Of a DNA stretch of 64,000 nucleotides, positions 34,621 through 53,026 are shown piece by piece. The stretch is taken from assembly GCA_044867425.1 (NCBI GenBank), contig JBIOUX010000039.1, positions 15,383 to 79,382 of the forward strand. Reading direction: 5' to 3'. Both the position numbers and the translations under genes were made by a program. Under the pieces are notes generated by a model. It made no database searches, was not told the origin of the DNA, and was given only the letters and a program-made list of their open reading frames with translations. Every line of letters begins with the position of its first letter. Within the stretch, counting starts at the first letter, position 1. Origin of the DNA: Acidimicrobiia bacterium. GTDB lineage: Bacteria; Actinomycetota; Acidimicrobiia; IMCC26256; BP-133.

Positions 34621-34627
34621 GGCGGCC

Positions 34628-37082: not shown

Positions 37083-38281
37083 CGCTGCCCGTCCTGCTCG
37101 TGGCCCACTCCACCCGGCCCCGGGGCGGCCTGGTGCACACCCTGTTCCTGGCCGAGGCCCTCCACCGCCTGGGCCAGCCCGTCGGTCTGGTGGCCCTGGG
37201 CGACCCGGCCGAGGGCCTGTTCCGGGCCACGGCCGTGCCCCACACGATCCTGCCCTCCCCGCCGCCGGCCCCGACGCTGGAGGAACGGGTGTTCGCCGCC
37301 GTCGACGCCCTGGAAGACGGGCTGCGGGGTCTGGTCAAGGGGCCCACCATCCTCCACGCCCAGGACTGCATCGCGGCCCGGGCCGCCGGGCGCATCCGCG
37401 ACGCCGACCGCTTCCCCGCCCTGACCGGTGTGCGCATCGTCCGCACCGTCCACCACTGCGACGACTTCACCACCGAGATCCTGGTCGAGTGCCAGCGCCG
37501 CTCCATCCACGACCCCGACCGGGTGCTGGTGGTGAGCCGGCAGTGGCAGGACATCCTGGCTGCCGACTACGACGTGAAGGCCGACATCGTGGCCAACGGC
37601 ATCGACCCGGATCGCTTCGGCCCGGCCGTTCCCGGTCAGCGGGATGAGCTCCGTTCCCGGCTGGGCGTGGGCGACGGCGGGTTCTTCGTGTTGACGGTGG
37701 GCGGCATCGAACCCCGCAAGGGGACCGCCACCCTGTTCGAGGCGCTGGCGGTTTTGAAGAGCCGCCTCGCCGTGGCCCCCGTGCTCGGCATCGTGGGCGG
37801 CCACTCCTTCCAGGACTACAAGGCGTACCGGGACGCCGCCCTGGCCCGCCTGCCCGAGCTCGGCCTGGAACTGGGACGGGACGTCGTCCTCCTCGGCACC
37901 GTCTCCGATGAAGAGCTCGGCGGCTGGTACCGGGCCGCCGACGCCTTCGCCTTCCCCTCGGTCAAGGAGGGCTTCGGCCTGGTGGTGCTGGAGGCGATGG
38001 CGATGAGTCTCCCCGTGGTGGCGACCGACATCCCCGTCTTCGCCGAGTACCTGACCGACGGGAAGAATGCCCTCCTGGCGCCGGCCGGTGACGCCACCGG
38101 CCTGGCCGGCGCCCTGGAACGGCTGGCCACCGACCCGGCGTTACGGGAGCGTCTGGTCGCCGGCGGCGCCGACGTGGTGGGCCGCTTCACCTGGGAAGCC
38201 AGCGCCCGTCGCCACATCGACATCTACGCCGCCGTGGAAGAGACGCAGAAGCTGCCGTCCGTCCCGTCCGTCCTGGAGTAG
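37079..38281 (+). CDS. GT4-family glycosyltransferase (candidate MSMEG_0565-type)
   Basis: C-terminal GT-B motif FAFPSVKEGFGLVVLEAMAMSLPVVATDIPVFAEY. The GTG start overlaps the arcC stop (GTGA). Confidence 0.88.
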   Translation: MTLPVLLVAHSTRPRGGLVHTLFLAEALHRLGQPVGLVALGDPAEGLFRATAVPHTILPSPPPAPTLEERVFAAVDALEDGLRGLVKGPTILHAQDCIAARAAGRIRDADRFPALTGVRIVRTVHHCDDFTTEILVECQRRSIHDPDRVLVVSRQWQDILAADYDVKADIVANGIDPDRFGPAVPGQRDELRSRLGVGDGGFFVLTVGGIEPRKGTATLFEALAVLKSRLAVAPVLGIVGGHSFQDYKAYRDAALARLPELGLELGRDVVLLGTVSDEELGGWYRAADAFAFPSVKEGFGLVVLEAMAMSLPVVATDIPVFAEYLTDGKNALLAPAGDATGLAGALERLATDPALRERLVAGGADVVGRFTWEASARRHIDIYAAVEETQKLPSVPSVLE

Positions 38282-38327
38282 GTGGTCGCGTTCCTCCCCC
38301 TCACAGGGGGTCAAGCGCGACCACCTT
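38280..38327. repeat. 48-bp palindromic intergenic repeat element, copy 2 (inverted relative to copy 1)
   Basis: AGGTGGTCGCGTTCCTCCCCCTCACAGGGGGTCAAGCGCGACCACCTT. Outer stem AGGTGGTCGCG/CGCGACCACCT and inner hairpin CCCCC-TCACA-GGGGG. It starts inside the TAG stop of the glycosyltransferase. Confidence 0.75.
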
Positions 38328-38355
38328 GGGCACGGGTCCCGGCGATAATTCCGGC

Positions 38356-38943
38356 ATGGATCAGGCACGGGGCAAGCACTTGAGCATCGTCGACTACGAC
38401 GCGACGTGGCCGGCCAGATTCAAGGACATCGGCGCCGCTCTGCGCGAGAGGCTCGGGGAGCACGCTCTCCGGGTCGACCACATCGGATCGACCGCCGTTC
38501 CCGGTCTGGCGGCGAAGGACGTCATCGACATCCAGGTGACGGTGGCGTCTCTCGATGCGGCGGACTGCTGGCCGGACGAGCTGCTGCCGAACCTGACGCG
38601 GAAGTACCGGGGAACCGCCGACGATCACGTTCCTCCCGGGGCGACGGGGGATCCCCGCCAGTGGACGAAGCACCTCTGGTCCGAGAGGTTGGCGATCCAC
38701 GTCCACGTGCGGGAGGACGGCCGGCTGAACCAGCGCTACGCGCTGCTGTTCCGTGACTACCTGCGAGCCGACGCCACCGCAGCCGGCGCCTACGGGCTCC
38801 TGAAGCGCGCCCTTGCGGACGTGGTGGCCGATGACTGGGACACCTATTACGCCGACAAGGATCCCGCCCGCGATCTGATCATGGCGGGCGCCGAGCAGTG
38901 GGCGCTCCGCACCGGTTGGACGCCAGGACCGACCGACGCCTAG
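38356..38943 (+). CDS. GrpB-family (UPF0157) nucleotidyltransferase-fold protein
   Basis: IVDYDATWPARF......L.......ALRVDHIGSTAVPGLAAKDVIDIQV is typical GrpB. Confidence 0.85.
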   Translation: MDQARGKHLSIVDYDATWPARFKDIGAALRERLGEHALRVDHIGSTAVPGLAAKDVIDIQVTVASLDAADCWPDELLPNLTRKYRGTADDHVPPGATGDPRQWTKHLWSERLAIHVHVREDGRLNQRYALLFRDYLRADATAAGAYGLLKRALADVVADDWDTYYADKDPARDLIMAGAEQWALRTGWTPGPTDA

Positions 38944-38981
38944 CCGCAGCAGCGGCAGCGGCAGCGGCAAGACTGGAAACC

Positions 38982-39353
38982 ATGCTGAGCATCGGGACGG
39001 TCGTCATGGGCGTGGGGGACCTGCGCCGCGCCGTGGACTTCTGGACACGGGCGCTCAACTACGTGCCGAAACGCGAGATCACCGCCGAGGACGACTTCGT
39101 CATCCTCGTTCCGGCAGCCGGCGACGGTACCCACGTGGCGCTCGATGTCAGCGAGACGCCCCCGCAGCCGTACCCCCGGGTCCATCTCGACCTGTACGCC
39201 GGCGATGCCGCCGACCAGGTCGCCGAGGTGGAGCGGCTCGTCTCGCTCGGTGCGCGGCGTGTCGATTGGGACCGGTACCCGGAGGATGCTGACTTCATCG
39301 TCCTCGCCGACCCCGAGGGCAACCGGTTCTGCGTCATCGACACCCAGCGCTGA
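38982..39353 (+). CDS. VOC/glyoxalase-family protein
   Basis: IGTVVMGVGDLRRAVDFWTRALNY..., HLDLYA... and LADPEGNRFCVI are glyoxalase-fold beta-alpha-beta-beta-beta modules. Confidence 0.85.
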   Translation: MLSIGTVVMGVGDLRRAVDFWTRALNYVPKREITAEDDFVILVPAAGDGTHVALDVSETPPQPYPRVHLDLYAGDAADQVAEVERLVSLGARRVDWDRYPEDADFIVLADPEGNRFCVIDTQR

Positions 39354-39395
39354 GGGAACGTTCGAGGTCGGCGGGTCCACCGCCCGCCGCCGGCC

Positions 39396-40430
39396 CTAGG
39401 AGCTCGCCGTGTCCTCGTCGAAGACGCGGCTCTTGAGCAGGTCCTCGGCTTCGATGCGCATCAGGTCGTCGCGGCCCACCTGGCGCTTCCCGCCGGAGAC
39501 GAGCCGGTTGGCGTGGCGGAGCCGGGCCCGCTCCAGGGCGTTGCGGACGGACCGGGCGTTGGCGAAGCGGGGCTGGATGCGGCGCCGCTCCAGGTAGTCC
39601 CGGAAGGCCTCCTGGGCCTCGGGGGAGAGCTCGTAGCGCTGCTCGGTGAGCATGAGGTCGCCGATGGCCAGCAGCTCGTCGAGGCCGTACTCGGGGAAGT
39701 CGATGTGGTGGGCGATGCGGGAGCTCATCCCCGGGTTGGACTGGAAGAAGGTGTCCATCCGGTCCTTGTAGCCGGCGAGGATGACGACGAGATCCTCCCG
39801 CTGGTTCTCCATCACCTGGAGGAGGATCTCGATCGCCTCCTGGCCGTAGTCCCGCTCGTTCTCCGCCCGGTGCAGGTAATAGGCCTCGTCGATGAACAGC
39901 ACCCCGCCCATGGCCCGGCGCAGCACGTCCCTGGTCTTGGGTGCGGTGTGCCCGATGTACTGGCCCACCAGCTCGTCCCGGGTGACCGACACCAGGTGGC
40001 CCTTGCCCAGGTAGCCCAGGCTGTGGAGCAGCTCCCCCATCCGCATGGCCACCGTGGTCTTGCCCGTCCCCGGAGGGCCGGTGAAGGACATGTGGAGCGT
40101 GGGCCGGGTGGAGTCGAGCCCGAAGCGGCACCGGAGGCGGTCGACGAGGAGGAGGGCGGCGATCTCCCGGATGCGGGTCTTGACCGGCACCAGCCCGACC
40201 AGCTCCCGGTCGAGGCGGTCGAGGACGGCGTCGACCTCGAGGGAGCGCCGCTCGGCGTCGATGTCGACCAGGGCGTCAGCCGCCAGCGGCTCGTCCTCCT
40301 CCGGTGCCGGCTCTGCCTCCTTGTTCTCCTCCGGTTCCGTCCGGACGTCGGGTTGGCGGCCGCCGGGCGCGGGCACGGCGAAGCCGAAGCGGGCCCCGCC
40401 CCCGCCGTTGGCCGCGCCGTCACCCGTCAT
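39396..40430 (-). CDS. cbbX: CbbX, AAA+ red-type RuBisCO activase
   Basis: [28 protein letters not shown], Walker [12 protein letters not shown], Walker [26 protein letters not shown]. Sits directly downstream of cbbS. Confidence 0.93.
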
Positions 40431-40433
40431 CCG

Positions 40434-40862
40434 TCACTGCCCGTTGGTGTAGCGCTCGCCGGGCGGGCGGTCGGCGGCGTAGGGGTGGAGGGTGTAGCGG
40501 ATCCGGCGGTCGGCGCTCGCCTGGCGCTCCAGGCGGAAGCCGGGCTCGTTGGGCGGCCGGTTGACCAGGAAGGACAGGCCCGTCGTCTGGCGGCCCAGGC
40601 GGGCGTCGTAGGCGCTCACCCGGATGTACTGGTTGGGGAAGGCCTCCCGGCACTTGCGCACCTCCTGGAGGACGGCGGCCGGGTCGGAGATGTCGAACAT
40701 GGGCAGCCCCCACATCTCCCAGTAGGCGTTGCGGGGGTGGGGGTCGTCGGTGAACTCCACGGCCAGAGCCCAGCCGTTCTCGATGGCGTAGTTGGCCTGG
40801 GCGCCGATCTCGTCGTCGGTCAGATCGGGCAGGTAGGAGAAGGTGCCTTGGGTGAGCCGCAT
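40434..40862 (-). CDS. cbbS: RuBisCO small subunit (red-type, with C-terminal extension)
   Basis: [21 protein letters not shown]....[25 protein letters not shown] is canonical. 142 aa. Confidence 0.93.
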
Positions 40863-40878
40863 GGATGCTCCGCTCCTC

Positions 40879-42393
<1,515 letters not shown>

Positions 42394-42515
42394 TCACCAC
42401 CAACCATTAAGTCTCTGTTTATGACTCCCGGTAAGTACGCGAAACGCGGGGCGATGAGTTTCGGGCGCCCCAATCGTCGGTACCAGCGAAGACGAAGCCG
42501 GCGACAGGAGAAGCC

Positions 42516-42989
42516 ATGCCCAAGATCACCCCCAACCTCTGGTTCGACACGGAAGGACAGGAGGCGGCCGAGTTCTACGTGTCGGTCTTTCCGAACTCGA
42601 AGATCACCAACGTCACCCACTACACCGAGGCCGGCCCGCGACCGGCCGGCACCGTGCTGACCGTCGAGTTCGTCCTCGACGGGCAGGAGTTCGTCGCCAT
42701 CAACGGCGGCCCGGAGTTCACGTTCGACGAGGCGATCTCCCTCATGATCACCTGCGAGGACCAGGACGAGATCGACTACTACTGGGCCAAGCTCTCCGAA
42801 GGCGGCGAAGAGGGGCCGTGCGGTTGGCTCAAGGACCGCTACGGCCTGTCCTGGCAGGTCGTCCCGGGCGGCATGGCCGACGCGCTCAACGACCCGGACC
42901 AGGGCCGCGCCACGCGCGCCATGACGGCGATGCTGGGCATGAAGAAGATCGACATCGCCGCCCTCCAGGCCGCCGCTGATCAGGCCTGA
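42516..42989 (+). CDS. VOC-family protein (PhnB / 3-demethylubiquinone-9 3-methyltransferase-domain type)
   Basis: MPKITPNLWFD..G.EAAEFYVSVFPNSKI..........G....V..VEF.L.GQ.F.AINGGP.F.F.EAIS....C..Q.E.D.YW.KL......CGWLKDRYG.SWQVVP. Confidence 0.85.
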   Translation: MPKITPNLWFDTEGQEAAEFYVSVFPNSKITNVTHYTEAGPRPAGTVLTVEFVLDGQEFVAINGGPEFTFDEAISLMITCEDQDEIDYYWAKLSEGGEEGPCGWLKDRYGLSWQVVPGGMADALNDPDQGRATRAMTAMLGMKKIDIAALQAAADQA

Positions 42990-43963
42990 GGCGGCAGGCC
43001 GGTGACGGGCTCGGCGGTCAGGTCGATGACCGTGGCCGTCTCCGCTCCCAGGCGGGCCCGCAGCAGGCCGGAATCGTCGATGGTGCCCACCACGGCGGCG
43101 TCCAGGCCCCGTTCCAGGAACGGGCGGGCACAGTCCTCCTCCTGGCCCGGCGGGGCGCACAGGAGGAAGGCGAAGCAGGGAAAGGACACCACCCAGGCGG
43201 ACAGCGACACCCCGGTTGGCTGGGGCAGGGCGTCGAGGTCGACGGTGACCCCGAGGCGGTGGCATTCCAGGAGCATGGCCAGGGATCCGAGCAGGCCGGG
43301 CATGCTCACGTCCTTGGCCGCCACCGCCGCCCCCGACTCGGCCACCGCGGCCAGGGTGCGGACGTCACCGCCCAGCCGGGTGCCCCGGGCGTCGAAGGAG
43401 GCGAAGAACGGGAAGTCGGCCCGCATGGTGCCCTGGGTGCAGCAGGCCACCAGCAGGCTCTGGCCGGCGGCGGCGTGGCGGGCGGCGAGCACCGGTCCAT
43501 CGGCCCGGCCCAGGCCGAAGGCCGACAGGGCCGGGGGACCGTCGCGCACGGTCAGGTGCCCGCCCACCACCGGCACCTGGTAGAGCATGGAGGCGTGGCG
43601 CATGCCCTCCAGGGCCTTGCGAGCCACCAGCTCGGGGCCGGTGACGGTGTCGACCACGGCCAGGGGCCGGGCGCCCATGGCGGCCAGGTCGTTGACGTTG
43701 GCCAGCACGGCGGCCACGCCGGCACCGAAGGGGTCGGCCTCCAGGAACGGCGGCCAGATGGCCTCGCCCCCGACCACCATGGTGGCCTCCTTGTCGACCA
43801 CCACGGCCCCGTCGTCGCCCGGCCCGGCCAGCCAGTCCCCCGCCCCCAGCACCTCGCCCACCAGGGCGATGGGCGCCTTGTTGCGCAGGCCGGGATGGGC
43901 GCGCACGGCGGCCACCACCGATTCCAGGGTGGCGCTCGTGGTCAGCGCCTGCTCGAGGGCCAT
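42980..43963 (-). CDS. AIR-synthase-related (PurM-like) protein, candidate sll0787/MSMEG_0571 family
   Basis: PurM-type N-domain GPGDDGAVV....MVVGGEAI.P.F...DPFGAGVAAVLANVNDLAAMGARPLAVVD and C-domain KDVSMPGLLGSLAMLLE. Lies 9 nt downstream of fdrA. Confidence 0.85.
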   Translation of the reverse strand: MALEQALTTSATLESVVAAVRAHPGLRNKAPIALVGEVLGAGDWLAGPGDDGAVVVDKEATMVVGGEAIWPPFLEADPFGAGVAAVLANVNDLAAMGARPLAVVDTVTGPELVARKALEGMRHASMLYQVPVVGGHLTVRDGPPALSAFGLGRADGPVLAARHAAAGQSLLVACCTQGTMRADFPFFASFDARGTRLGGDVRTLAAVAESGAAVAAKDVSMPGLLGSLAMLLECHRLGVTVDLDALPQPTGVSLSAWVVSFPCFAFLLCAPPGQEEDCARPFLERGLDAAVVGTIDDSGLLRARLGAETATVIDLTAEPVTGLPPQA

Positions 43964-43972
43964 ACCCGCAGA

Positions 43973-45538
43973 TTAGGCGGAGGTGGTGGAGTTGGCCCCG
44001 GCGGGGGCGAGGACGAGCTCGGGCCGGCGGGTGGCGATGGCGGCGGCCGCCAGCGCCGCGCGGGCGGCGGTGGGAGCGACGAGGCACCCGGCCTCGGCCA
44101 GGGTGGCCTGCTGAGCGGCCAGTCCCTGGGGGTCGGCCTCGGTGCCGAGCACGTAGGCCACGATCTGGGTGCCGGCGGCCCGCACCTCGGCGCAGACCGG
44201 GGCCAGGGCGCCGGCGGGGTCGTCATTGGCGCCGTAGCCCAGGACGACGTCGAGAAGGACGACGGCCGTGGCCGGATTCCGGCTTTCCTCGGCCAGGTGC
44301 TCGAGTCGGATGGACGGATCGATCATCGGGTGAGGCCGGCCCTTGGTGTACTCCTCCTCACCCAGGTCGAGGCAGATGTGGCTGTCGGGCGGGGCGGGCA
44401 CGTCCCAGCCCTTGCGCAGCGGCGTGTTGGAGTGGACCGGGCCCAGCACGCCCGAGAGGAGCACCAGCGCCTCGTAGCACAGGGTGCCGCCCGAGTAGAG
44501 GCCACGGACCAGGCGGCGCCCGGGGTCCATGGTGGCGCAGGCGGCCCGCACCGCCTCGGCCAGGCCGCCGGCGGCGGGGTCGGGCGTGTCCTTCCCGGCC
44601 AGCTCCAGGGCCAGGAGCGCCCCTTCCTCCAGGGTGGTGGCCAGGCGCACCGTGTCCGGGACGGGGATGGGCTCCTTCAAGCCGATGAGGGCGGCGGCCA
44701 GGGGCGTGTCGCCGGCTTCGGCCACCACCGCCTGGGCCACCTCAGGCGATGGCGGCTTGGACACCAGCAGGATCACGTCGGTGCCCGGGTCCTGGCGCAG
44801 GGCGGCCACGGCCAGGCGGGCCATGCGCCCCCCGACCGCTTCCGACAGGTCGCGCCCGCCCACCCCGATGACGGCGGAGACCCCTGCCCCCCACCGGTCG
44901 AGGAGGCACATGACCTCCTGGGCTCCGGTGCCGGCGGCGGCGACCACGCCCACCCGGCCCCGGCGCACGACGTTGGCGAAGCCGAGCCCGCATCCTCCCA
45001 GCACGGCCGTCCCCGCCCCCGGCCCCATGACCAGCCGGCCCAGCGCCCGGCCCCGGTCCTTCAGCTCGATTTCCTCCTCCACCGGGACGTTGTCGGAGAA
45101 CAACAGCACGTGGAGCCCGGCGGTCAGGGCCTTGTGGGCTTCGAGGGCGGCGTAGTCGCCGGGGACGGACACGATGGCCAGGTTGGCGTCGGGAAGCTCG
45201 GCCACCGCCTCCTCCAGGCTGAGGGGTTCCGGCGCGGTGCCCGCCCCGTTCCTGCCGCCGCCACCGCGCCTGGGGCCACCCCCGAGGGCGGCGTGGCCGG
45301 CGGCCAGGGCCGCTTCGGCCGCCTCGTCGTCGCCGGCCCGGGCGGCCAGCACGCAGTCGTTGGCCCCGGCCCCGGCCAGGTCGAAGCCCTCGCCCTCCAT
45401 GATGGCGACGTTGGCCGGGGTGGCCATGGCCGCCGTGGCCCACTCGACCCCGTCGATCTCCCGCATGGCCCGGGTGGCGGCCATCTGGAGGACCGAGTCG
45501 ACGTAGGCGTCCTTGAGCAGGCGCAGCTTGTGGCTCAC
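43973..45538 (-). CDS. fdrA: FdrA-family protein (succinyl-CoA-synthetase-alpha-like; oxalurate/oxamate pathway-associated)
   Basis: The N-terminus ..LLKDAYVDSVLQMAATRAM.....VEWATAAMATPANVAIMEGEGF parallels E. coli FdrA. CoA-ligase-like Gly-rich repeats follow. GTG 45538. Confidence 0.88.
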   Translation of the reverse strand: MSHKLRLLKDAYVDSVLQMAATRAMREIDGVEWATAAMATPANVAIMEGEGFDLAGAGANDCVLAARAGDDEAAEAALAAGHAALGGGPRRGGGGRNGAGTAPEPLSLEEAVAELPDANLAIVSVPGDYAALEAHKALTAGLHVLLFSDNVPVEEEIELKDRGRALGRLVMGPGAGTAVLGGCGLGFANVVRRGRVGVVAAAGTGAQEVMCLLDRWGAGVSAVIGVGGRDLSEAVGGRMARLAVAALRQDPGTDVILLVSKPPSPEVAQAVVAEAGDTPLAAALIGLKEPIPVPDTVRLATTLEEGALLALELAGKDTPDPAAGGLAEAVRAACATMDPGRRLVRGLYSGGTLCYEALVLLSGVLGPVHSNTPLRKGWDVPAPPDSHICLDLGEEEYTKGRPHPMIDPSIRLEHLAEESRNPATAVVLLDVVLGYGANDDPAGALAPVCAEVRAAGTQIVAYVLGTEADPQGLAAQQATLAEAGCLVAPTAARAALAAAAIATRRPELVLAPAGANSTTSA

Positions 45539-45714
45539 ATCCGCCTCCGATTCGAGCCATAATCCCCGCCCGGCTCCCGCTCGCCGCCGCCGAAGCTCGG
45601 TCGGCGGCAGTGGGCGTCGCGTGGCGGATAGGAAAAACAGCGTTCACCATAGGAGACGGCACCCCATCTGACAAGCGTCTATCGTTCGGACGCTCTCTGA
45701 CGCGTTTCTTATGG

Positions 45715-45744
45715 TTGACGCCCATGTCGGAAAGTAGTTAGATT
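45715..45744 (+). promoter_or_regulatory. Candidate promoter TTGACG-N18-TAGATT for the radical-SAM operon
   Basis: TTGACG at 45715-45720 and TAGATT at 45739-45744, in an AT-enriched divergent intergenic region ~30 nt upstream of GTG 45774 (RBS GAGGGAGG). Confidence 0.35.
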
Positions 45745-45773
45745 TCACGCCTGGCTGCGAGAGGGAGGTCGAC

Positions 45774-46913
45774 GTGGATGTCGAAACGCCGGTAGACCTC
45801 GCCTGGCTGATCACCGAGCTCCAGAGCCGCGGCCTGCGGGCCGAGACCCCGATGGAGGGCCGGCGGGGCGGGGCGGGCCCCTCGGACTCGGGGATGCTCT
45901 GGATCGAAGGGGTGGCCGTCACCGTCCCCACCGACGCCCCCTGGGCCCGCTCCTCCCCCTATTCGCTGCGGCCCGAGGATGACGGCTTTGGCATCTACCG
46001 GGACGGCGCCCGGCTGGCCGGGGCCTCGGGCAGCCAGCGGCCCCGCTACTACGACCTGACCACCGCCGACGGGATTCCCTACTGGAAGATCGCCCCCCTC
46101 CACCTCGACTCGCTGGCCTCCACCGTCCTCCAGGCCTGCGCCTACTGGGGCAACGACGACCAATGCCGCTTCTGCGGGATCGGCCTGTCGCTGGAGGCCG
46201 GCCGTACCATCGCCCGCAAGTCACCCGAGCAGCTGGCCGAGGTGGCGGTGGCGGCCAAGGAGCTCGACGGCGCCGTCGACGCCACCCTCACCACCGGCTC
46301 GACCTCCGCCCCCGACAAGGGCGCCCTCTACGTGGGCCGCTGCGGGGCGGCCGTCAAGGCGGCCGCCGGCCTGCCCGTCGAGGTCCAGTTCGAACCCCCC
46401 GCCGACCTCGACGCCATCGACGCCGTGGCCGACATGGGCATCGACTCGGTCGGCATCCACGTGGAGACCTTCGACCCCGAGGTCCTGGCCCGGGTGGCGC
46501 CGGCCAAGGCCCGCACCGGCGTCGAGGGCTACTTCGCGGCCTGGGAGCGGGCCGTGGCCCGCTTCGGGCAGGGCCAGGTCTCCACCTACGTGATCCTGGG
46601 CATGGGCGAGGACCCCGAGCTCACCGTGGCCGGGTGCCGGCGGGCCATCGACATGGGCGTCTACCCCTTCGTGGTGCCGCTGCGGCCGATCGCCGGCACC
46701 CTCATGGAGGACCACGTACCGCCCTCGGCCGCCTACACCGAGTCCATCTACCGCCGGGTGGTGCCCTACCTCACCGCCCGGGGCATCACCGCCGGGGCCG
46801 TCTCCGCCGGCTGCGCCCGCTGCCAGGCCTGCTCGGCCATGGGGGCCATGGAGCGCACCGTCGAGCTGGGGGGCCGGCGGGCCAGCATCCCGCTCCAGGA
46901 CGCCCGGAGCTGA
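45774..46913 (+). CDS. Radical SAM protein, candidate MSMEG_0568 family
   Basis: Cys cluster CAYWGNDDQCRFCG (C-x8-C-x2-C), a TIM-barrel-like core (DSVGIHVETFDPEVLARVAP.K........F..W..A...F..G.VSTYVILGMGE) and C-terminal CARCQAC. Followed without a gap by its usual GNAT partner. Confidence 0.85.
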   Translation: MDVETPVDLAWLITELQSRGLRAETPMEGRRGGAGPSDSGMLWIEGVAVTVPTDAPWARSSPYSLRPEDDGFGIYRDGARLAGASGSQRPRYYDLTTADGIPYWKIAPLHLDSLASTVLQACAYWGNDDQCRFCGIGLSLEAGRTIARKSPEQLAEVAVAAKELDGAVDATLTTGSTSAPDKGALYVGRCGAAVKAAAGLPVEVQFEPPADLDAIDAVADMGIDSVGIHVETFDPEVLARVAPAKARTGVEGYFAAWERAVARFGQGQVSTYVILGMGEDPELTVAGCRRAIDMGVYPFVVPLRPIAGTLMEDHVPPSAAYTESIYRRVVPYLTARGITAGAVSAGCARCQACSAMGAMERTVELGGRRASIPLQDARS

Positions 46914-47426
46914 GTGGTGGCCGAACGCAGCGTCCTCGCCCGCCAGGTTCCCGGGCTCGAAGCCGCCGGGCGGCTGCCGCTGGCGTGCCGGATGGCGCTC
47001 AGCGCCGAGGAGCTCGCCCTGCACCATCGCATCCGCCACCAGGTGTTCGTCGACGAACAGCGCATCTTCACCGGGTCCGACGTCGACGTCCACGACGACG
47101 AGGCCGCCACCATCCGGGTCATCGGGACGGCGGGAGCGGTGGTGGCGGGGGCCGTCCGCCTGTACCCGCTGGAGCCCACCGGCGAGCTGTGGCTGGGCGA
47201 CCGGCTGGCGGTGCTGCCCGCCTTCCGCATCCAGGGGCTGGGCAAACCGCTCGTCCGCTTCGCCGTGGCCACCGCCGCCCGCCTCGGGGGCCGGGAGATG
47301 CAGGCCCACATCCAGCCGCCCAACGTCCGCTTCTTCGAGCGGCTGGGCTGGGAGTGCCGGGGCCCGGTGGAGATCTACGTCGGGACCCCCCACCAGCCCA
47401 TGGCCATCGATCTGACTGCTCTTTGA
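46914..47426 (+). CDS. GNAT N-acetyltransferase, candidate MSMEG_0567/Sll0786 family
   Basis: HHRIRHQVFVDEQRIF...D.HD......IG........GAVRLYP, then FRIQGLGKPLVRFAV..A...G...M.A.IQ..NV.FFE.LGW. The GTG abuts the preceding TGA. Confidence 0.85.
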   Translation: MVAERSVLARQVPGLEAAGRLPLACRMALSAEELALHHRIRHQVFVDEQRIFTGSDVDVHDDEAATIRVIGTAGAVVAGAVRLYPLEPTGELWLGDRLAVLPAFRIQGLGKPLVRFAVATAARLGGREMQAHIQPPNVRFFERLGWECRGPVEIYVGTPHQPMAIDLTAL

Positions 47427-47432
47427 GGTGCC

Positions 47433-48836
47433 ATGACACTCGTCCTGCCTGAGGACGTGGCCGTCGTCAACGTCGGCCTCTCGCTCTTCACCGATGCCAT
47501 CCGGGACCAGGACCGGCCCGTCCAGAGCGTCGACTGGCGCATCCCGGCCGGCGGCGACCTCGAGGCGGTGGCCGCCCTCCGCCGGCTCTACGGCCCCAAG
47601 GCGGAAGCGATCGACGCCGCCAACGCCGAGGTGGTCCGCCGGCTCGACCAGGGTGTGCCCATGCTGGTGGGGCTGGAGCCCGCCTCCCGGGTCGTGCCCG
47701 ACCTGGGCGAGCGCACGATCCTGCACTGCGGCCCCCCCATCGGCTGGGACGACATGTGCGACCCGCTGCGCCGCTCGGTCCAGGCGGCGGTGGTGGCCGA
47801 GGGCTGGGCCGCCAGCCCCGGTGAGGCGGGCGCCCTGGTGGCCGGAGGCCAGGTCGCGCTCGAGCCGGCCAACGCCCACATGACGGTCATTCCCATGGCC
47901 AGCGCCATCGGGCCCTCGGCCTGGGTGTGGGTGGTCGAGTGCGGCGAGGCCGGCACCCGGGCCTTCTCCGCCGTCAACCAGGGGCCGGGCGAGGTGGCCT
48001 GGTTCGGCCGGGACACCCCCGCCGCCGTCCAGCGCCTGGTCTTCCTGGCCGAGGTGGCGGGCCCCCTGCTGGCGGAAGCCGTGGGCCGGGCCGGGCCCAT
48101 GGACGTCTTCGGCCTGGCCGCCCAGGGCCTGCAGATGGGCGACGACGTCCACATGCGCAGCCAGGCCACCACCAACATCCTGTGGCGCCACCTCCTACCC
48201 CACCTGGTGGCCCTGGAGGACCCCCGGCGCGTCGACCTGGCCACCTTCCTGGCGTCCAACCACCTCTTCTTCCTCAACCTGGCCATGGCCGGGGCCCGCT
48301 CCCTCACCGAGTGGGCCCGGCAGGTCCCGGGTTCGAGCGTGGTGTGGAGCATGGCCCGCAACGGGACGACCTTCGGGGTCAAGCTGCCGGGCCTGGACGA
48401 CTGGTTCCTGGCCCCCGCCCCGCCCGTCACCCATGCCCTCTACTACTCGGGCGAGGGGCCGGAGACGAGCGCCCCGGACATCGGCGACAGTGCTCTCCTC
48501 GAGCTGGTCGGCCTCGGCGGTCCGGCGGGGGCGGCCTCGCCCGCCGTGGCCTCCTTCGTGGGCGGCACCATGGACGACGCCATCCGCCTCACCCTGGACA
48601 TGGACCGCATCTGCGCCGGGCGCAGCAGCCGCTTCAAGCTGCCCCTGCTGGACTTCCGGGGGACGCCGATCGGGGTGGACGTCCGCCGGGTGGTGGAGAC
48701 CGGCATCACCCCCAGGATCAACACCGGGATCCTCCACGTCTCGGCCGGGACGGGACAGGTGGGCGCCGGGGTGGCGGTCGCTCCCCTGGAGTGCTTCTCC
48801 CAGGCCCTCCTCGCCCTCGACCGCCACCTGGCTTGA
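47433..48836 (+). CDS. DUF1116-family protein (YlbE/AllG-like)
   Basis: 467 aa; ...ILHCGPPI.W..MC.P.R.......V.EGWA and MRSQATTNIL...L... match my recollection of YlbE-type proteins. Gene order fdrA / DUF1116 / DUF2877 matches E. coli fdrA-ylbE-ylbF. Confidence 0.8.
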   Translation: MTLVLPEDVAVVNVGLSLFTDAIRDQDRPVQSVDWRIPAGGDLEAVAALRRLYGPKAEAIDAANAEVVRRLDQGVPMLVGLEPASRVVPDLGERTILHCGPPIGWDDMCDPLRRSVQAAVVAEGWAASPGEAGALVAGGQVALEPANAHMTVIPMASAIGPSAWVWVVECGEAGTRAFSAVNQGPGEVAWFGRDTPAAVQRLVFLAEVAGPLLAEAVGRAGPMDVFGLAAQGLQMGDDVHMRSQATTNILWRHLLPHLVALEDPRRVDLATFLASNHLFFLNLAMAGARSLTEWARQVPGSSVVWSMARNGTTFGVKLPGLDDWFLAPAPPVTHALYYSGEGPETSAPDIGDSALLELVGLGGPAGAASPAVASFVGGTMDDAIRLTLDMDRICAGRSSRFKLPLLDFRGTPIGVDVRRVVETGITPRINTGILHVSAGTGQVGAGVAVAPLECFSQALLALDRHLA

Positions 48837-48927
48837 CCTGCCTGACGGCGGAGGGACCGCCCGGCCCGCCGCCTCCAAGGAACTTGTGCGTTTTTTGCCA
48901 GCAATCACTGGCAGAAAGCCCACAAGA

Positions 48928-49710
48928 ATGGATTTCCACCCCGTGAGCGGCCTCCGGGTCGGCGCCGGCGCCCGCGAGGTGCTGGCCACACTCGGCCCGG
49001 GGGAAGTGCTGGCCGTCTACCGGCGCGCCGCCTACCTCCGCCTCCCCGGCGGCATCGTGGCCCTGGTGGTTCCCGGCGTCCCGCCCGGCCCACTTTGGAT
49101 CGCCGGTGGCCTCGACCCCGAGGCTTCCCTCGGGTTAGGGGATCCGGTTGCCGTCGGGGACGGCTGGCTGGAGGTGGCGGGCAGAAGGTTGGACGTCGGC
49201 GGGGCGGACACGTGGCGGGGACCGCTCCCCGACCCAGCCGCCCTGCGGGCCGCCCGGCCGCTGGCGCTTGACGTTCTCGCTGCCGCCCCCCCTTCGTCGC
49301 TGCTCGACGAGCCCTGGCGGCCGGCGCTCCGCCAGGCCGAGGCGACCGTGGGCACCGGGGACCTCGTGGAGGCCGCCGGCATCCTCGGGGGCCTCGGGCC
49401 CGGCCTCACGCCGGCCGGTGACGACGCCCTGGCCGGCATCCTCCTCGCCCGCCGGGGCCTCGCCGGCGCGAGCACCGAGGAGGACCTCATGGCCGTCGCC
49501 CGGGCCGCCCGCACCACGGACCTCAGCGCGGCCCTCCTCTCCTGGGCGGCGCGGGGCCAGGCGGTGGAACCGGTCCACGACCTCCTCTCCGCCGTCGCCG
49601 CCGGCGACCGGCCGACGGCGGCCGCCGCCACCGCACGCGTCGCCGCCCTCGGCGCCTCCTCTGGTGCCGATCTGCTGCTCGGCCTCCGCCTCGGCCTTTC
49701 GGCCGGCTGA
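48928..49710 (+). CDS. DUF2877-family protein (YlbF/AllH-like)
   Basis: GLGPGLTPAGDDALAGILLA and GASSGADLLLG motifs typical of DUF2877. ATG 48928 (upstream ORF extension ignored). Confidence 0.8.
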   Translation: MDFHPVSGLRVGAGAREVLATLGPGEVLAVYRRAAYLRLPGGIVALVVPGVPPGPLWIAGGLDPEASLGLGDPVAVGDGWLEVAGRRLDVGGADTWRGPLPDPAALRAARPLALDVLAAAPPSSLLDEPWRPALRQAEATVGTGDLVEAAGILGGLGPGLTPAGDDALAGILLARRGLAGASTEEDLMAVARAARTTDLSAALLSWAARGQAVEPVHDLLSAVAAGDRPTAAAATARVAALGASSGADLLLGLRLGLSAG

Positions 49711-49774: not shown

Positions 49775-50794
49775 ATGGACACCACCATGCTCATCGCCAC
49801 CGCCCAGGCCCTGGTCGCGCCCGGCAGAGGGATCCTCGCCGCCGACGAGAGCACCGCCACCATCACCAAGCGCTTCAACGCCCTCGGGATCGAGTCGACC
49901 GCCGACTCCCGGCGGGACTACCGGGAAGTGCTCCTCACCTGCCCGGCGCTGGCCGGTACGGCGGGCGGGGTCATCCTCTACGACGAGACGCTGCGCCAGT
50001 CGGCCGCCGACGGCACGCCCTTCCCCCAGCTCCTGAAGGGCCAGGGCGTCATCCCCGGCATCAAGGTGGACACCGGGGCCAAGCCCCTGGCCGCCTGCCC
50101 CGACGAGACGGTCACCGAGGGGCTCGACGGCCTGTGCGAGCGCCTGGCCGAGTACCGGGAGCTGGGCGCGGGGTTCGCCAAGTGGCGGGCGGTGATCAGC
50201 ATCGGGGACGGCCGCCCCAGTGCCACCTGCCTGGACGCCAACGCCCACGCCCTGGCCCGCTACGCCGCCCTGTGCCAGGAGGCCGGGATCGTGCCCGTGG
50301 TCGAGCCCGAGGTCCTGATGGACGGTGATCACGACATCCACCGCTGCTACCAGGAGACCAGCGCCGCCCTCCAGTCCGTCTTCGCCGCGCTGGCCACCCA
50401 CCGCGTCGTCCTCGAGGGCATCGTCCTCAAGCCCAACATGGTCCTCCCCGGCGCCCGGTGTGTCGACCAGGTCCCGGTGGACGCGGTGGCCGACGCCACG
50501 CTGAGCTGCCTGGCCCAGAACGTGCCGGTGGCCGTACCCGGCGTCGCCTTCCTCTCGGGGGGCCAGGGCCCGGAGGTGGCCACGGCCCATCTGAACGCCA
50601 TGAACGTCAAGGGCGGCGCCCCCTGGCGGCTCACCTTCTCCTTCGGCCGGGCCCTCCAGGACCCGGCGCTGCGGACCTGGGGCGGCAAGCCCAGCAATGC
50701 CGAGGCGGCCCAGCTGGCCCTGGCCCACCGGCTCAACCTCACCGCCGCCGCCTCCCAGGGCACCTACGACCCGGAGATGGAAACAGCCGCCTGA
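49775..50794 (+). CDS. Fructose-bisphosphate aldolase, class I
   Basis: GRGILAADESTATITKRF..LGIE.T...RR.YRE.L...........GVILYDETL.Q....G.PF...L...G..PGIKVD.G and LKPNMV (Schiff-base Lys region). Confidence 0.92.
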   Translation: MDTTMLIATAQALVAPGRGILAADESTATITKRFNALGIESTADSRRDYREVLLTCPALAGTAGGVILYDETLRQSAADGTPFPQLLKGQGVIPGIKVDTGAKPLAACPDETVTEGLDGLCERLAEYRELGAGFAKWRAVISIGDGRPSATCLDANAHALARYAALCQEAGIVPVVEPEVLMDGDHDIHRCYQETSAALQSVFAALATHRVVLEGIVLKPNMVLPGARCVDQVPVDAVADATLSCLAQNVPVAVPGVAFLSGGQGPEVATAHLNAMNVKGGAPWRLTFSFGRALQDPALRTWGGKPSNAEAAQLALAHRLNLTAAASQGTYDPEMETAA

Positions 50795-50879
50795 GTGGGG
50801 AGGAAAAGTGCGGCGCAACGGCCGGGAATCGGCTCGCCGGACTTGACTACTAAACTGAATGCCTGTCTACTATCGTCCT

Positions 50880-51683
50880 ATGCAGTCCTTCCTCCGCCTC
50901 CCCCGCCGCAGCGAGAAGCCCCGGTTCGTCGGGCTCACGCACGTCATCGACAAGGGCCTCCCGCTGGCCGAGCTCGAATCGCTGCTGGCCGCGTCGGGGG
51001 AGTACGTCGATGTCTGGAAGCTGGGCTTCGGCACGGCCTATCTCGACCCCACCGTCGAGGCGAAGGTGGCGGTGCTCACCGGGGCCGGGAACCGGGCCTG
51101 CCTGGGCGGCACCCTCCTCGAGGTGGCCTGGGCCCAGGGCCGGGCCGAGGAGTGCCTCAACTGGGCCGGGGAGGTCGGCTTCTCCTGCGTCGAGGTGTCG
51201 AACGGCAGTTGCCACATGCCGCTGGCGGCCAAGCGGAACCTGATCGCCACCGCCAGCCGGAACTTTGTGGCCATCTCCGAGGTGGGCTCCAAGAACCCCC
51301 AGACGCCGGTGTCGCCCGCGGCGTGGGCCGAGGAGATGACGGGCGACATCGAGGCCGGCGCCACCTGGGTGCTGGCCGAGGGGCGCGAGAGCGGCACCGT
51401 GGGCCTCTATGACGCCGACGGCCGGGTCCGGGAGGAGCTGGCCGAGGCCCTGGTCGCCGCCGTCGGGTTGCGCTTCGTGGTCTTCGAGGCCCCCCGGTCG
51501 GCTCAGCAGGCATGGTTCGTGAACCGCTTCGGCTCGGCCGTGAACCTGGGCAACATCGCCCCGGCGGAGCTGCTGGCCGTCGAATCGCTGCGCCTCGGAC
51601 TGCGGGCTGACACCTTCGGGCTGGGCCAGCCCGTCCTCCACGCCGCCGAGGGCCAGCCCGCCGTCGTCGGCGAGAGCGCCTAG
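50880..51683 (+). CDS. comA: Phosphosulfolactate synthase (ComA family)
   Basis: LP.R..KPR..GLTHVIDKGL........LL..SGEYVDVWKLGFGT.......V..K......AG......GGTL.E.A.......E......E.GF..VEVSNG, then EGRESG and VFEAP...QQ.WF...FGS.VNLGNI. Start ATG 50880 (TACTAT 6 nt upstream) or ATG 50859. Confidence 0.88.
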   Translation: MQSFLRLPRRSEKPRFVGLTHVIDKGLPLAELESLLAASGEYVDVWKLGFGTAYLDPTVEAKVAVLTGAGNRACLGGTLLEVAWAQGRAEECLNWAGEVGFSCVEVSNGSCHMPLAAKRNLIATASRNFVAISEVGSKNPQTPVSPAAWAEEMTGDIEAGATWVLAEGRESGTVGLYDADGRVREELAEALVAAVGLRFVVFEAPRSAQQAWFVNRFGSAVNLGNIAPAELLAVESLRLGLRADTFGLGQPVLHAAEGQPAVVGESA

Positions 51684-53026
51684 CTGTCTGATCCTGACCG
51701 GGCGGCGGCCAGCCCGTTCTGGGCGGCCAGGACGATGGCCTCGTCGACGGCGCCCATGGAGGGCGCGTAGACGGTCTCCATGTTGGCCAGGTCGGTGAGC
51801 GTGACGCCCGTCTTGACCGCTATGGCCAGGAAGTCGGCCCGCTCCTTGATGCCCTCGCCGCCCACCATCTGGGCGCCGATGAGCCGCAGGCTGCCGGGCT
51901 CGGCCAGGAGCTTGACCCGGAGCTTCTTGTCGTCGGCGTAGTACCGGGCCCGGGAGATGGTCTCGGCCAGCCCGACCACGTGGGGGATGCCGAGGGCGGC
52001 GGCCAGGGTCTCGCCGAAGGCCACGCCGCCGATCATCCACTTCCCCGCCACCATGCCCCAGGGAACGTAGACGGGCTGGTAGGCCCGCTTGCCCCCGCCG
52101 GCGTTGGTCCCCGCCACCTTGCCCTGGGCGTAGGCATGGCTGCCCGAGAGGCCCTGCAGGGGGATGTTGGCCACGCCGTGGGGCACCTCGATGCAGTCGC
52201 CGGCGGCGTAGACGTCGGGCACCGAGGTGGCCATCCGCTCGTCGACGATGATGCCCCCGGTGGAGCCGATCTCGATGCCGGCGGCGGCGGCCAGATCGTT
52301 GCGGGGCACCTTCTTGGTGCAGACCACCACCAGGTCGGCGGGCAGCTCACCGGCGGAGGTGCGCACCCCCCGGACGTGGCCCTTCCCGTCGTCCAGGAAG
52401 GCCTCGAGCTCGGTGTTGAAGTGCATCTTCACGCCCATCTCGGCCCAGGAGTCCTCCACCGGCCCGGCGATGTCGGGGTCGGCCGCCTCGGCCATGGCCC
52501 ACGGGAAGGGATCGATCAGATGCGTCTCGATCCCCCGGTGGGGCAGGGCGGTGACCATCTCGAGGCCCAGCGGTGAGGCCTCGACCACCACCGCCACCTT
52601 GGCCTGGTCGATGACCTTGTCCCACTCCATGGCCCGGCGGATGTTCTTCACGTAGTAGAGCCCGTCGAGATCCGAGCCGGGCACGCCGGGGTCGGCGTAG
52701 TCGAAGCCGGTGGCCAGGATCAGCCGGTCCCAGGGCACCTCGCCCTCGCCCTCCACCGTCACCACCCGGCGGGTCACGTCGATCCCCGTCACCTTGGTGG
52801 AGTAGTGGATGTCGATGCCCGCCTCGACGTAGGCCTCCTTGCCGGCCAGGAACAGCCGGTCGAAGTCGGGGATCTCCTTGCCGTGGACGTAGGGGATCCC
52901 GCACGGGCTGTAGGCGGCGTCCTCGTACTCGGTGTAGACGGTCACCTGACCCGACCGGTCGGCGGCCCGGGCCGCACCCGCCGCTCCGATGCCTGCGGCG
53001 CCGCCGCCCACGATGACGGTCCTCAT
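51680..53026 (-). CDS. Pyridine nucleotide-disulfide oxidoreductase (CoA-disulfide reductase/NADH oxidase family), full-length paralog
   Basis: MRTVIVGGGAAGIGAAGAA, candidate redox Cys motif YSPCGIPY, VAVVVEASPLGLEM, AAGDCIEV, and a dimerisation domain. RBS GGAGGCGGGGAGG. Confidence 0.9.
   Translation of the reverse strand: MRTVIVGGGAAGIGAAGAARAADRSGQVTVYTEYEDAAYSPCGIPYVHGKEIPDFDRLFLAGKEAYVEAGIDIHYSTKVTGIDVTRRVVTVEGEGEVPWDRLILATGFDYADPGVPGSDLDGLYYVKNIRRAMEWDKVIDQAKVAVVVEASPLGLEMVTALPHRGIETHLIDPFPWAMAEAADPDIAGPVEDSWAEMGVKMHFNTELEAFLDDGKGHVRGVRTSAGELPADLVVVCTKKVPRNDLAAAAGIEIGSTGGIIVDERMATSVPDVYAAGDCIEVPHGVANIPLQGLSGSHAYAQGKVAGTNAGGGKRAYQPVYVPWGMVAGKWMIGGVAFGETLAAALGIPHVVGLAETISRARYYADDKKLRVKLLAEPGSLRLIGAQMVGGEGIKERADFLAIAVKTGVTLTDLANMETVYAPSMGAVDEAIVLAAQNGLAAARSGSDS

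Follow-up and report, generated by a model that had tools for sequence, protein, structure and literature searches.

A Nit1C-derived gene cluster of Actinomycetota that combines AllFGH-type transcarbamylase, nitrile hydratase, and coenzyme M-type genes

The Nit1C cluster, reportedly described by Podar in 2005 and said to correspond to sll0783-0787, to the MSMEG_0565-0572 'gpr' genes, and to nitBCDEFGH of Pseudomonas, has remained since 2005 without a known product or pathway, despite its wide spread, its strong induction by nitrogen starvation, and the need for it in cyanide assimilation and peroxide resistance of model bacteria. In pseudomonads, canonical Nit1C is needed for cyanide assimilation (PMC11049912), and the Mycobacterium smegmatis version (gpr) is induced by GlnR and confers peroxide resistance and NADPH balance (PMC6039565). 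AllFGH of Escherichia coli is an oxamic transcarbamylase, which interconverts oxalurate plus phosphate and oxamate plus carbamoyl phosphate and has the catabolic carbamate kinase AllK as its partner (PMC11326118); in nitrifiers, allFGHK lies beside genes for the catabolism of the ureides biuret and triuret (PMC12625717). The xcb pathway for coenzyme M (CoM) was described from Xanthobacter autotrophicus Py2, where CoM serves alkene metabolism (PMC9457059). Here, we analyze a stretch of 64,000 nucleotides from an Acidimicrobiia bacterium (assembly GCA_044867425.1, contig JBIOUX010000039.1, positions 15,383 to 79,382; "the window" denotes this whole stretch, and positions are counted from its first letter), in which an earlier note had placed, at 42980-49710, Nit1C-type genes interleaved with genes for FdrA, DUF1116, and DUF2877. 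We conclude that this hybrid cluster is a Nit1C derivative that keeps five Nit1C-type genes, and we consider it very probable that its Nit1C-type and AllFGH-type genes constitute one conserved pathway, because across three classes of Actinomycetota these genes remain linked despite many rearrangements. The variant exchanges the nitrilase branch for enzymes of known chemistry, namely, nitrile hydratase, a carbamoyl-phosphate-forming transcarbamylase, and carbamate kinase. A search of full-text literature, with subscription journals mostly outside its reach, found no paper that joins FdrA/DUF1116/DUF2877 or AllFGH with Nit1C, nitrile hydratase, or xcb.

Families were assigned with curated NCBIfam/TIGRFAM and Pfam models and their cut-offs, and in the window, with a G+C content of ~72%, true reading frames were singled out by third-position GC. 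The six genes first noticed at 42980-49710 were all confirmed in the sequence, as were their coordinates, strands, and junctions. On the plus strand, a radical SAM protein (rSAM) of the MSMEG_0568 family (45774-46913; TIGR04043, 391.6 bits, above 303.7) has the C-x8-C-x2-C motif that had been read from the letters, as C122, C131, and C134, and in alignment an auxiliary C-terminal Cx2Cx2C; no relative with a solved structure was found for it. Immediately after its TGA follows the GTG start of a GNAT gene of the MSMEG_0567/Sll0786 family (46914-47426; TIGR04045, 103.6 bits, above 68.45) and, after a gap of 6 nucleotides (nt), the gene for the AllG/DUF1116 subunit (47433-48836; Pfam PF06545, 209.6 bits, above the gathering score), a protein of YahG-like length that matches PDB 3CLQ and whose N-terminal segment equals the AllF C-tail. 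The AllH/DUF2877 subunit (48886-49710; Pfam PF11392, 82.8 bits, above the gathering score) most likely starts at GTG 48886, which lies 49 nt past the AllG stop and has an AAGGA ribosome-binding site in front. Pfam now names DUF1116 and DUF2877 as the oxamate carbamoyltransferase subunits AllG and AllH. On the minus strand, across a divergent intergenic region of 235 nt, lies the gene for the FdrA/AllF-like subunit (43973-45538, with a GTG start), with SucD-like CoA-binding and CoA-ligase domains (Pfam Ligase_CoA and CoA_binding; NF004760, 411.5 bits, below 433), followed after 9 nt by that for an AIR-synthase-like (AIRS-like) protein of the PurM superfamily (42980-43963; Pfam AIRS and AIRS_C), for which TIGR04049 (sll0787) is the best match, although at 239.3 bits it is below the cut-off of 321.3. 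Among the Nit1C-type families that the earlier note had named, rSAM and GNAT hold at curated cut-offs and the AIRS-like protein lies just below its own; AllG and AllH pass their Pfam models, and FdrA passes for its Pfam domains and lies just below the NCBIfam cut-off.

The genes had been read correctly, but their extent had not: the flagged interval is the middle of a larger cluster, at ~30.1-53.0 kb, that is split by an inserted cbbLSX operon. The window holds five Nit1C-type families, not three. In addition to rSAM, GNAT, and the AIRS-like protein, it encodes on the plus strand a member of the MSMEG_0572/Sll0783 family (Nit1C ORF1, DsrE/YchN-like; 32438-32923; TIGR04044, 201.9 bits, above 109.85), which is 51% identical to the Klebsiella Nit1C copy and has one invariant Cys, C114, and a GT4 glycosyltransferase of the MSMEG_0565 family (37079-38281; TIGR04047, 343.7 bits, above 259.85). 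The latter gene overlaps by 4 nt the stop of a carbamate kinase gene (36096-37082, plus strand; NF009007, 275.7 bits, above 266; TIGR00746, 330 bits), which makes the AllFGH plus carbamate kinase system of the window complete, with four components of four. The mixing of gene sets in the earlier note is real, but there are four modules rather than two: a Nit1C core; an AllFGH module that includes carbamate kinase; a module of either nitrile hydratase or an Amidohydro_2 protein; and a module in which a disulfide reductase accompanies CoM-type xcb genes.

The gene set recurs well beyond the window. An rSAM alignment scanned against one genome per GTDB species gave at least 590 relatives, the best 80 of which (52-91% identity) were examined; the zone of 46-52% identity, a possible home of transitional forms, lies outside these best 80 of at least 590. 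All 80 loci are from Actinomycetota (Acidimicrobiia, Actinomycetes, and Thermoleophilia). Assemblies of Actinomycetota or Acidimicrobiia are also the source of every close rSAM homolog (75-92% identity), and three neighborhoods fetched via identical proteins show the same gene set in different orders. Asanoa hainanensis, a Nonomuraea sp., Leekyejoonella antrihumi, and Kribbella spp. are isolates among the carriers, and such cultured carriers, including Kribbella orskensis, make the question of function testable. Components were scored within +/-10 kb of rSAM in the well-flanked loci (52, each with 8 kb or more to both sides) by tblastn with coverage thresholds, which undercounts genes that are small or divergent (AllH, s102) as well as members that lie far away; many of the compared loci are contigs of metagenome-assembled genomes (MAGs), and the loci are phylogenetically related. 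Tabulated in this way, the rSAM neighborhoods carry at least one of the genes for carbamate kinase, FdrA, and AllG in 51/52 cases and all three in 37/52. GNAT is present in 51/52, carbamate kinase in 44/52, the glycosyltransferase in 43/52, the AIRS-like protein in 39/52, MSMEG_0572 in 34/52, and ComA in 26/52. A reciprocal scan of metagenomes with the window AllG returned 80 contigs (53-92% identity), 37 of them at least 5 kb long; 36 of these 37 carry Nit1C-type and/or xcb genes beside AllG, and we therefore regard this AllG lineage as dedicated to the cluster. The entire array is on single contigs in L143, L147, L149, L150, and L165. In total, the hybrid cluster is kept in >100 actinobacterial genomes and metagenome contigs.

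The earlier note had argued for one pathway over chance adjacency, and this two-way comparison strongly supports that view. A chance or lineage-specific juxtaposition, with an oxalurate-type ureide module lying beside a Nit1C remnant, could be read from the window itself, where the genes are spread over both strands, carbamate kinase is 8 kb from FdrA, and a RuBisCO operon lies between the two. We regard such a juxtaposition as extremely improbable, given that the co-occurrence holds in both the rSAM-selected and the AllG-selected loci, across three classes and many rearrangements, that AllF and AllG-AllH routinely lie in separate operons, each with Nit1C-type or xcb genes, and that family scans of the window and the compared loci found no allantoin-pathway genes. 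The operons also have a promoter box in common (see below), and assembly chimeras are unlikely across >100 independent assemblies that include isolate genomes.

Compared with canonical Nit1C, the hybrid has the same rSAM-GNAT adjacency with MSMEG_0572 upstream; ORF1/0572, the Cx8Cx2C rSAM, GNAT, and the optional GT4 are all above curated cut-offs, and the AIRS-like protein is nearest to sll0787. It differs in that nitrilase, MSMEG_0570, and MSMEG_0569 were found in 0/52 well-flanked loci, the latter two also in none of the 80 loci. In the window, searches of all 64 kb by tblastn and six-frame phmmer found no CN-hydrolase, as the earlier note had said of nitrilase, and no homolog of MSMEG_0570 or MSMEG_0569. 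The hybrid rSAMs are 37-48% identical to canonical ones (from the plasmids Rhodococcus pLP1 and a Klebsiella virulence plasmid) and 48-91% identical to each other, and they form a single clade of their own. The AIRS-like protein, besides being below its cut-off, is 34-35% identical to canonical Nit1C copies and is usually encoded on the opposite strand. Finally, the hybrid is a multi-operon locus with many added genes and, judged by the best 80 of at least 590 rSAM relatives, is so far known only from Actinomycetota.

The commonest layout has, from left to right, leftward genes for the glycosyltransferase, FdrA, and carbamate kinase; rightward genes for MSMEG_0572 (optional), the conserved protein h219, an Amidohydro_2 protein (optional), rSAM, and GNAT; a leftward AIRS-like gene; and then rightward ComA, XcbA, XcbD, XcbE, and XcbC (optional), AllG, and AllH. 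An accompanying block has a leftward XRE-type regulator gene and rightward genes for a CoA-disulfide-reductase-like flavoprotein (DSOR), s102, MSMEG_0572, nitrile hydratase beta, alpha, and accessory proteins (optional), and OsmC. Synteny predicts an operon of carbamate kinase, FdrA, and glycosyltransferase, in which AllF is normally grouped with the kinase and a Nit1C-type glycosyltransferase, and an operon ComA-XcbA-XcbD-XcbE-XcbC-AllG-AllH, with the CoM-type genes first and AllG-AllH last. The window and its nearest relatives (L001, L002, L007, and L008) have a derived layout, in which FdrA adjoins the AIRS-like gene, AllG follows GNAT, ComA is the sole xcb gene kept, cbbLSX is inserted, and the reductase is duplicated.

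The replacement of the nitrilase is visible when gene slots are compared. In Klebsiella, the canonical order is 0572-nitrilase-rSAM-GNAT-AIRS. In the hybrid loci, the nitrilase slot, either right after 0572 or right before rSAM, holds a nitrile hydratase operon (15/80) or an Amidohydro_2 gene (30/80), and the two never occur together in the genome and metagenome sets. The window has the former directly downstream of MSMEG_0572, on the plus strand: nitrile hydratase beta (32998-33666; TIGR03888, 190.8 bits, above 152.2; Pfam NHase_beta_N/C), a Co-type alpha subunit with the motif VCTLCSCY (33666-34265; TIGR01323, 291.8 bits, above 249.85), and an accessory (activator) protein (34267-34620; Pfam NHase_beta_N, 45.3 bits), in an order that related loci keep. 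The operon resembles known Co-type nitrile hydratase operons, in that alpha and beta score above the equivalog cut-offs, the metal site reads VCTLCSCY, and the third gene is that for the accessory protein; it differs in its place after MSMEG_0572 and in alternating with Amidohydro_2 in other lineages. A thiocyanate hydrolase was rejected, as the model for that enzyme scores 193.7, below 291.45, whereas the nitrile hydratase alpha model passes. The alternation is the pattern to be expected if one hydrolytic step had undergone non-orthologous displacement, and in the window nitrile hydratase takes the place of the nitrilase in the same slot. From this slot replacement, we argue that a nitrile-type intermediate is probably a real feature of the pathway.

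A set resembling xcbABCDE lies directly upstream of AllG-AllH in about half of the loci. Related loci encode best-match homologs of all five Xanthobacter proteins in one operon, in the order B-A-D-E-C; the differences are that the operon runs on into allG-allH and that the window keeps only ComA/XcbB. In related loci, the XcbA family scores 329.5 bits (cut-off, 150), XcbD 598.2 bits (cut-off, 600), XcbC 429 bits (cut-off, 575), XcbE 235 bits from a partial open reading frame (ORF; cut-off, 450), and ComA/XcbB about 230-240 bits (cut-off, 280); the XcbC and XcbE models are the best matches for their genes. The loci hold no alkene or epoxide genes (monooxygenase, epoxyalkane:CoM transferase), and CoM-type biosynthesis genes appear to be far commoner in bacteria than the few known alkene oxidizers. 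Further pointers to thiol chemistry are a reductase of CoA-disulfide reductase/NADH peroxidase type with a single Cys, OsmC/Ohr, and the DsrE/YchN-like 0572 protein with its one invariant Cys. Thiol-cofactor genes are tied to the cluster, its possible chemistry is narrowed to carbamoyl groups, cyano groups, and thiols, and concrete substrates are indicated.

The transcarbamylase genes have the same three subunit families as E. coli allFGHK and yahEFG-yahI, together with a gene of the carbamate kinase family; the FdrA motifs are conserved, and the length (domain) split between FdrA and AllG is YahF/YahG-like. For the window proteins, identities to the E. coli counterparts are 39% (AllF) and 36% (YahF) for FdrA, 38% (AllG) and 36% (YahG) for the DUF1116 subunit, 38% (AllH, over the C-terminal part) and 25% (YahE) for the DUF2877 subunit, and 42% (AllK) and 41% (YahI) for the kinase. 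Judged by these values (25-42%), the window set appears to be a third paralog set, about equidistant from All and Yah. The recently identified AllFGH family thus seems to include a third, dedicated group that acts on another substrate. In contrast to allFGHK, the hybrid genes do not form one operon, AllF being with carbamate kinase and the glycosyltransferase and AllG-AllH with rSAM-GNAT or xcb, and there are no nearby allantoin (allECD) or ureide genes.

SucCD-superfamily enzymes phosphorolyze acyl-thioesters to acyl-phosphates. FdrA, which is below the cut-off of its NCBIfam model, belongs to the succinyl-CoA synthetase alpha superfamily, the subunits are a separate paralog set at 25-39% identity to AllFGH/YahEFG, and synteny groups AllG-AllH in an operon with xcb genes in most loci. 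These features would suit a SucCD-like acyl-thiol/acyl-phosphate enzyme acting on an xcb-derived sulfonated acid or a CoM thioester, with the kinase homolog acting on another acyl-phosphate. We think this improbable, as the All, Yah, and hybrid sets each pair with a carbamate-kinase family gene, and the kinase in the window is above the carbamate kinase subfamily cut-off. Because all three sets share this pairing, carbamoyl phosphate is likely their common intermediate.

Carbamate kinase normally converts carbamoyl phosphate to NH3, CO2, and ATP, and nitrile hydratase converts R-CN to R-CONH2. The suggestion in the earlier note of a carbamoyl or ureido intermediate that yields carbamoyl phosphate seems plausible and is strengthened by the kinase at 36096-37082. 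We tentatively propose, while rating it somewhat below an even chance, that the cluster specifies an assimilatory route by which nitrogen would be released from a C1-N unit of the cyano, nitrile, or cyanate type. As to direction alone, we see the carbamoyl-phosphate-yielding (assimilatory) one as roughly a toss-up. The C1-N unit would be hydrated to a carboxamide or carbamoyl group by nitrile hydratase or, in other lineages, by the Amidohydro_2 protein, and the carbamoyl group would then be borne by a heteroatom, for which the thiol group of CoM, or of a sulfonate thiol related to it, is the most economical candidate. The AllFGH-like enzyme would move the carbamoyl group to phosphate, by analogy with the SucCD half-reaction (acyl-S-CoA plus phosphate to acyl-phosphate) and with oxalurate phosphorolysis in E. 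coli, and carbamate kinase would convert the carbamoyl phosphate to NH3, CO2, and ATP. The disulfide reductase and OsmC would keep the thiol pool reduced, and the Nit1C core (rSAM with its auxiliary cluster, 0572, AIRS-like protein, GNAT, and glycosyltransferase) would make, load, or repair the carrier. A nitrilase that releases NH3 in one step would explain why canonical Nit1C is without AllFGH and carbamate kinase.

Within this scheme, the thiol-bound carbamoyl group is a detail that we consider rather unlikely. Its full form, in which CoM or a close sulfonate-thiol relative would carry a bound cyano or cyanate-type unit that nitrile hydratase or the Amidohydro_2 protein turns into an S-carbamoyl thiol and that passes through AllFGH to carbamoyl phosphate and carbamate kinase, we likewise regard as improbable. 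In this form, many soil, freshwater, and marine Actinomycetota would make such a thiol for a purpose apart from alkene or methane metabolism. If true, the thiol-carrier version would be a previously unknown nitrogen-scavenging pathway and would show what the Nit1C core serves.

Several points weigh against the assimilatory proposal. This cluster variant is known from its genes alone, from which we infer the mechanism. The rSAM, GNAT, AIRS-like protein, and glycosyltransferase are typical biosynthetic enzymes, to which the proposal gives a vague role. Within +/-10 kb, neither nitrile hydratase nor Amidohydro_2 was found in ~16/52 loci; xcb genes were not found in about half of the loci, nor xcbA, xcbC, xcbD, or xcbE in the 64-kb window. 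The product may not be CoM itself, since the xcb-like proteins other than XcbA are below their cut-offs. To our knowledge, Amidohydro_2 enzymes are not known as nitrile hydratases, and we know of no case in which phosphorolysis of an S-carbamoyl thiol was shown for an AllFGH-type enzyme, the known substrate being an N-acylurea. Finally, the peroxide resistance and NADPH phenotype of M. smegmatis gpr is fitted at least as well by a redox cofactor.

Such a cofactor is at the center of a biosynthetic alternative, in which the cluster would make a dedicated small molecule, for example a low-molecular-weight thiol or redox cofactor carrying glycosyl, N-acetyl, sulfonate or thiol, and carbamoyl groups. 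Carbamate kinase would supply carbamoyl phosphate, and the AllFGH-like enzyme would run in the carbamoylating direction, the one assayed in E. coli; the AIRS-like protein may dehydrate a carboxamide to a nitrile as HypE does, with nitrile hydratase, the Amidohydro_2 protein, or nitrilase trimming or recycling the product, which the disulfide reductase and OsmC would use in peroxide defense. After its own family, the glycosyltransferase is nearest to MshA and BshA, enzymes of mycothiol and bacillithiol, and the cluster encodes a GNAT, a type of enzyme that mycothiol synthesis also uses. The rSAM has its auxiliary Cx2Cx2C and a weak similarity to the sulfur-inserting LipS2, the 0572 protein is DsrE/YchN-like with one invariant Cys, a reductase of CoA-disulfide reductase type and OsmC are in the cluster, and canonical MSMEG_0569 weakly matches the model for the bacillithiol-disulfide reductase YpdA. 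The xcb genes make a thiol cofactor (PMC9457059), and the M. smegmatis gpr cluster gives peroxide resistance (PMC6039565). However, thiol biosynthesis offers no easy place for an enzyme that hydrates nitriles and occupies the slot of the nitrilase, and the PuuR-like regulator and, in some loci, sub-threshold AmiS/UreI-like channels look like substrate utilization. Both known AllFGH contexts and the nitrifier one are catabolic, carbamate kinase is normally catabolic, and biosynthetic carbamoylations normally use CarAB. We judge such biosynthesis to be possible but on the unlikely side.

HypE also bears on the biosynthetic alternative as the closest solved relative of the AIRS-like protein (31.9 bits, weak). 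As a mechanistic analogy only, the HypF/HypE carbamoyl-to-cyano chemistry of [NiFe]-hydrogenase maturation likewise joins a PurM-superfamily protein with carbamoyl-phosphate metabolism and thiol chemistry. The resemblance is very weak, however, and the hybrid lacks both a carrier Cys at the C terminus and HypF, HypC, and HypD. The AIRS-like protein as a self-carrier of HypE type was ruled out, as the C-terminal Cys is missing in the alignment. The DSOR proteins were likewise considered as MSMEG_0569 counterparts and rejected, as no homology was detected and they are functional analogues at most.

The operons share a promoter element. In the window, the box CTATCGTGAACG lies upstream of carbamate kinase (36034-36045, plus strand), inside a sigma-70-like match at 36011-36040, and the box CTATGGTGAACG faces FdrA in the 235-nt divergent region (45641-45652, minus strand). 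Sigma-70-like hexamers occur in both divergent intergenic regions (5 found versus 0.5 expected), on both strands at FdrA/rSAM. The 9-mer TATCGTGAA has only two exact copies in 64 kb, upstream of DSOR1 (a first DSOR copy, described below) and of the kinase, and a one-mismatch copy points at FdrA. Across the genome loci, 9/9 exact and 14/25 one-mismatch copies of the 12-mer CTATSGTGAACG lie within 250 nt upstream of, and facing, cluster genes (carbamate kinase, FdrA, rSAM, h219, ComA, or the regulator). In gene-oriented upstream regions, this motif, which was discovered on part of the data used to test it, gave 22 matches in 18 loci, versus 0.32 +/- 0.71 for 200 position-permuted motifs; in a small hold-out, the independent metagenome set, it gave 3 matches versus 0.15. 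The shared box is in silico support for co-regulation of the operons, and the PuuR-like regulator is the putative protein that binds it. Rfam gave no match in the intergenic regions at an E value of 0.1 or below, so that no riboswitch or known RNA was detected, and there were no intrinsic terminators above expectation.

That regulator, an XRE-HTH plus cupin protein (30105-30737, start approximate, minus strand), is 80% identical by tblastn to its counterpart in the related locus L003, which has Pfam HTH_3 and Cupin_2 domains and an NCBIfam PuuR match of 91.6 bits; such a regulator is present in 32/52 well-flanked loci. Next to it, at the ancestral position (XRE, then divergently DSOR, s102, and 0572), is DSOR1 (30831-32033, plus strand; Pfam Pyr_redox_2), a CoA-disulfide-reductase-like flavoprotein in which an internal deletion of ~45 residues takes out the YSPCGIPY active-site segment; it is probably a decaying paralog. 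The intact copy, DSOR2 (51680-53026, minus strand; Pfam Pyr_redox_2, Pyr_redox, and Pyr_redox_dim), is of CoA-disulfide-reductase/NADH-peroxidase type, with the single-Cys motif YSPCGIPY and a TIGR03385 score of 232.7 bits, below the cut-off; it is 83% identical to the cluster copy in L003 and now adjoins ComA. The latter, a phosphosulfolactate synthase (ComA/XcbB-like; 50859-51683, plus strand; Pfam ComA, 263 bits; TIGR03849, 239.7, below 280), is separated from AllH by a class I fructose-bisphosphate aldolase gene (49775-50794).

Between DSOR1 and MSMEG_0572 lies s102 (32036-32344, plus strand), a small protein without a Pfam or NCBIfam match, whose motif WLRxNSEHYLL...MPGSHRRxW is conserved in 12 loci; a divergent MSMEG_0570 was rejected at an hhalign probability of 0.6%. 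The 'DsrE-like' gene at 32438 is likewise not a generic sulfur-oxidation gene, as TIGR04044 places it in the Nit1C ORF1 family. After the nitrile hydratase genes comes an OsmC/Ohr-like peroxiredoxin (34583-35041, plus strand; NCBIfam OsmC-like and Ohr matches), present in 29/52 well-flanked loci, and then, divergent from carbamate kinase, h219 (35361-36017, minus strand), which has homologs in 39/52 well-flanked loci, usually immediately upstream of rSAM. No family match was found for h219, nor, for its AlphaFold2 (AF2) model (predicted local distance difference test [pLDDT], 91.2), a PDB fold match at an E value of 0.001 or below. OsmC and the 3' end of h219 are separated by 319 nt, in which a ribosome-binding site, GGAGGAGGA, precedes a GTG ORF (35118-35372, plus strand), whose first ~45 residues (…AEKAQGQTKKVTGKLSDDMEKAEEG…) may resemble small CsbD-type stress proteins.

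The block at 38326-42989, outside the conserved cluster, has family matches to GrpB, CbbX, RuBisCO small and large subunits, and a glyoxalase-like protein. Its form I RuBisCO operon is entirely on the minus strand (cbbL, 40879-42366; cbbS, 40434-40862; cbbX, 39396-40430). The cbb operon is an insertion, as shown by L003, which has the same gene set without RuBisCO; the block is missing between the glycosyltransferase and AIRS-like genes in L003 and nearly all other loci. The same RuBisCO insertion is in L001 and L007, and on a Pseudonocardia MAG contig (L064, 1-4100), RbcL lies 1.7 kb from rSAM. RuBisCO beside the cluster may be a coincidence or a transferred block.

Some related loci show features of their own. 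An Aeromicrobium MAG (L027:459-1348) has, 0.7 kb from the glycosyltransferase gene, a nitrilase-like gene split over two frames and 35% identical to the Klebsiella Nit6803-type enzyme; it may be a nitrilase relic or an assembly error. Loci L067-L086 (Solirubrobacterales/Thermoleophilia) are without xcb or nitrile hydratase and have an extra Methyltransf_20 gene, together with an upstream gene for a class I/II aminotransferase that comes closest to cyclodehydratases of the GntC/VioD type. In L026 (9380-9922) and ~five similar loci, from Candidatus Aldehydirespirator and other Acidimicrobiales, a 180-amino-acid (aa) membrane protein is encoded between nitrile hydratase and rSAM; its sub-threshold AmiS/UreI match (24.3 versus 25 bits) hints that a small uncharged compound, such as an amide, urea, or a nitrile, is taken up.

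In the window, several real genes are overlapped in antisense by very long ORFs of 555-767 aa, at 35361-37028 (minus strand), 46221-48191 (minus strand), and 43259-45562 (plus strand), which are high-G+C artifacts. One long antisense-type ORF gave carbamate kinase an apparent N-terminal extension of 170 residues; the 498-aa ORF at 35586-37082 was rejected as an extended kinase, as its upstream part is antisense to h219 and the start is ATG 36096. Finally, an encapsulin shell protein (Pfam Linocin_M18, 273.9 bits) is encoded at 20935-21897 on the minus strand, ~9 kb to the left of the cluster.

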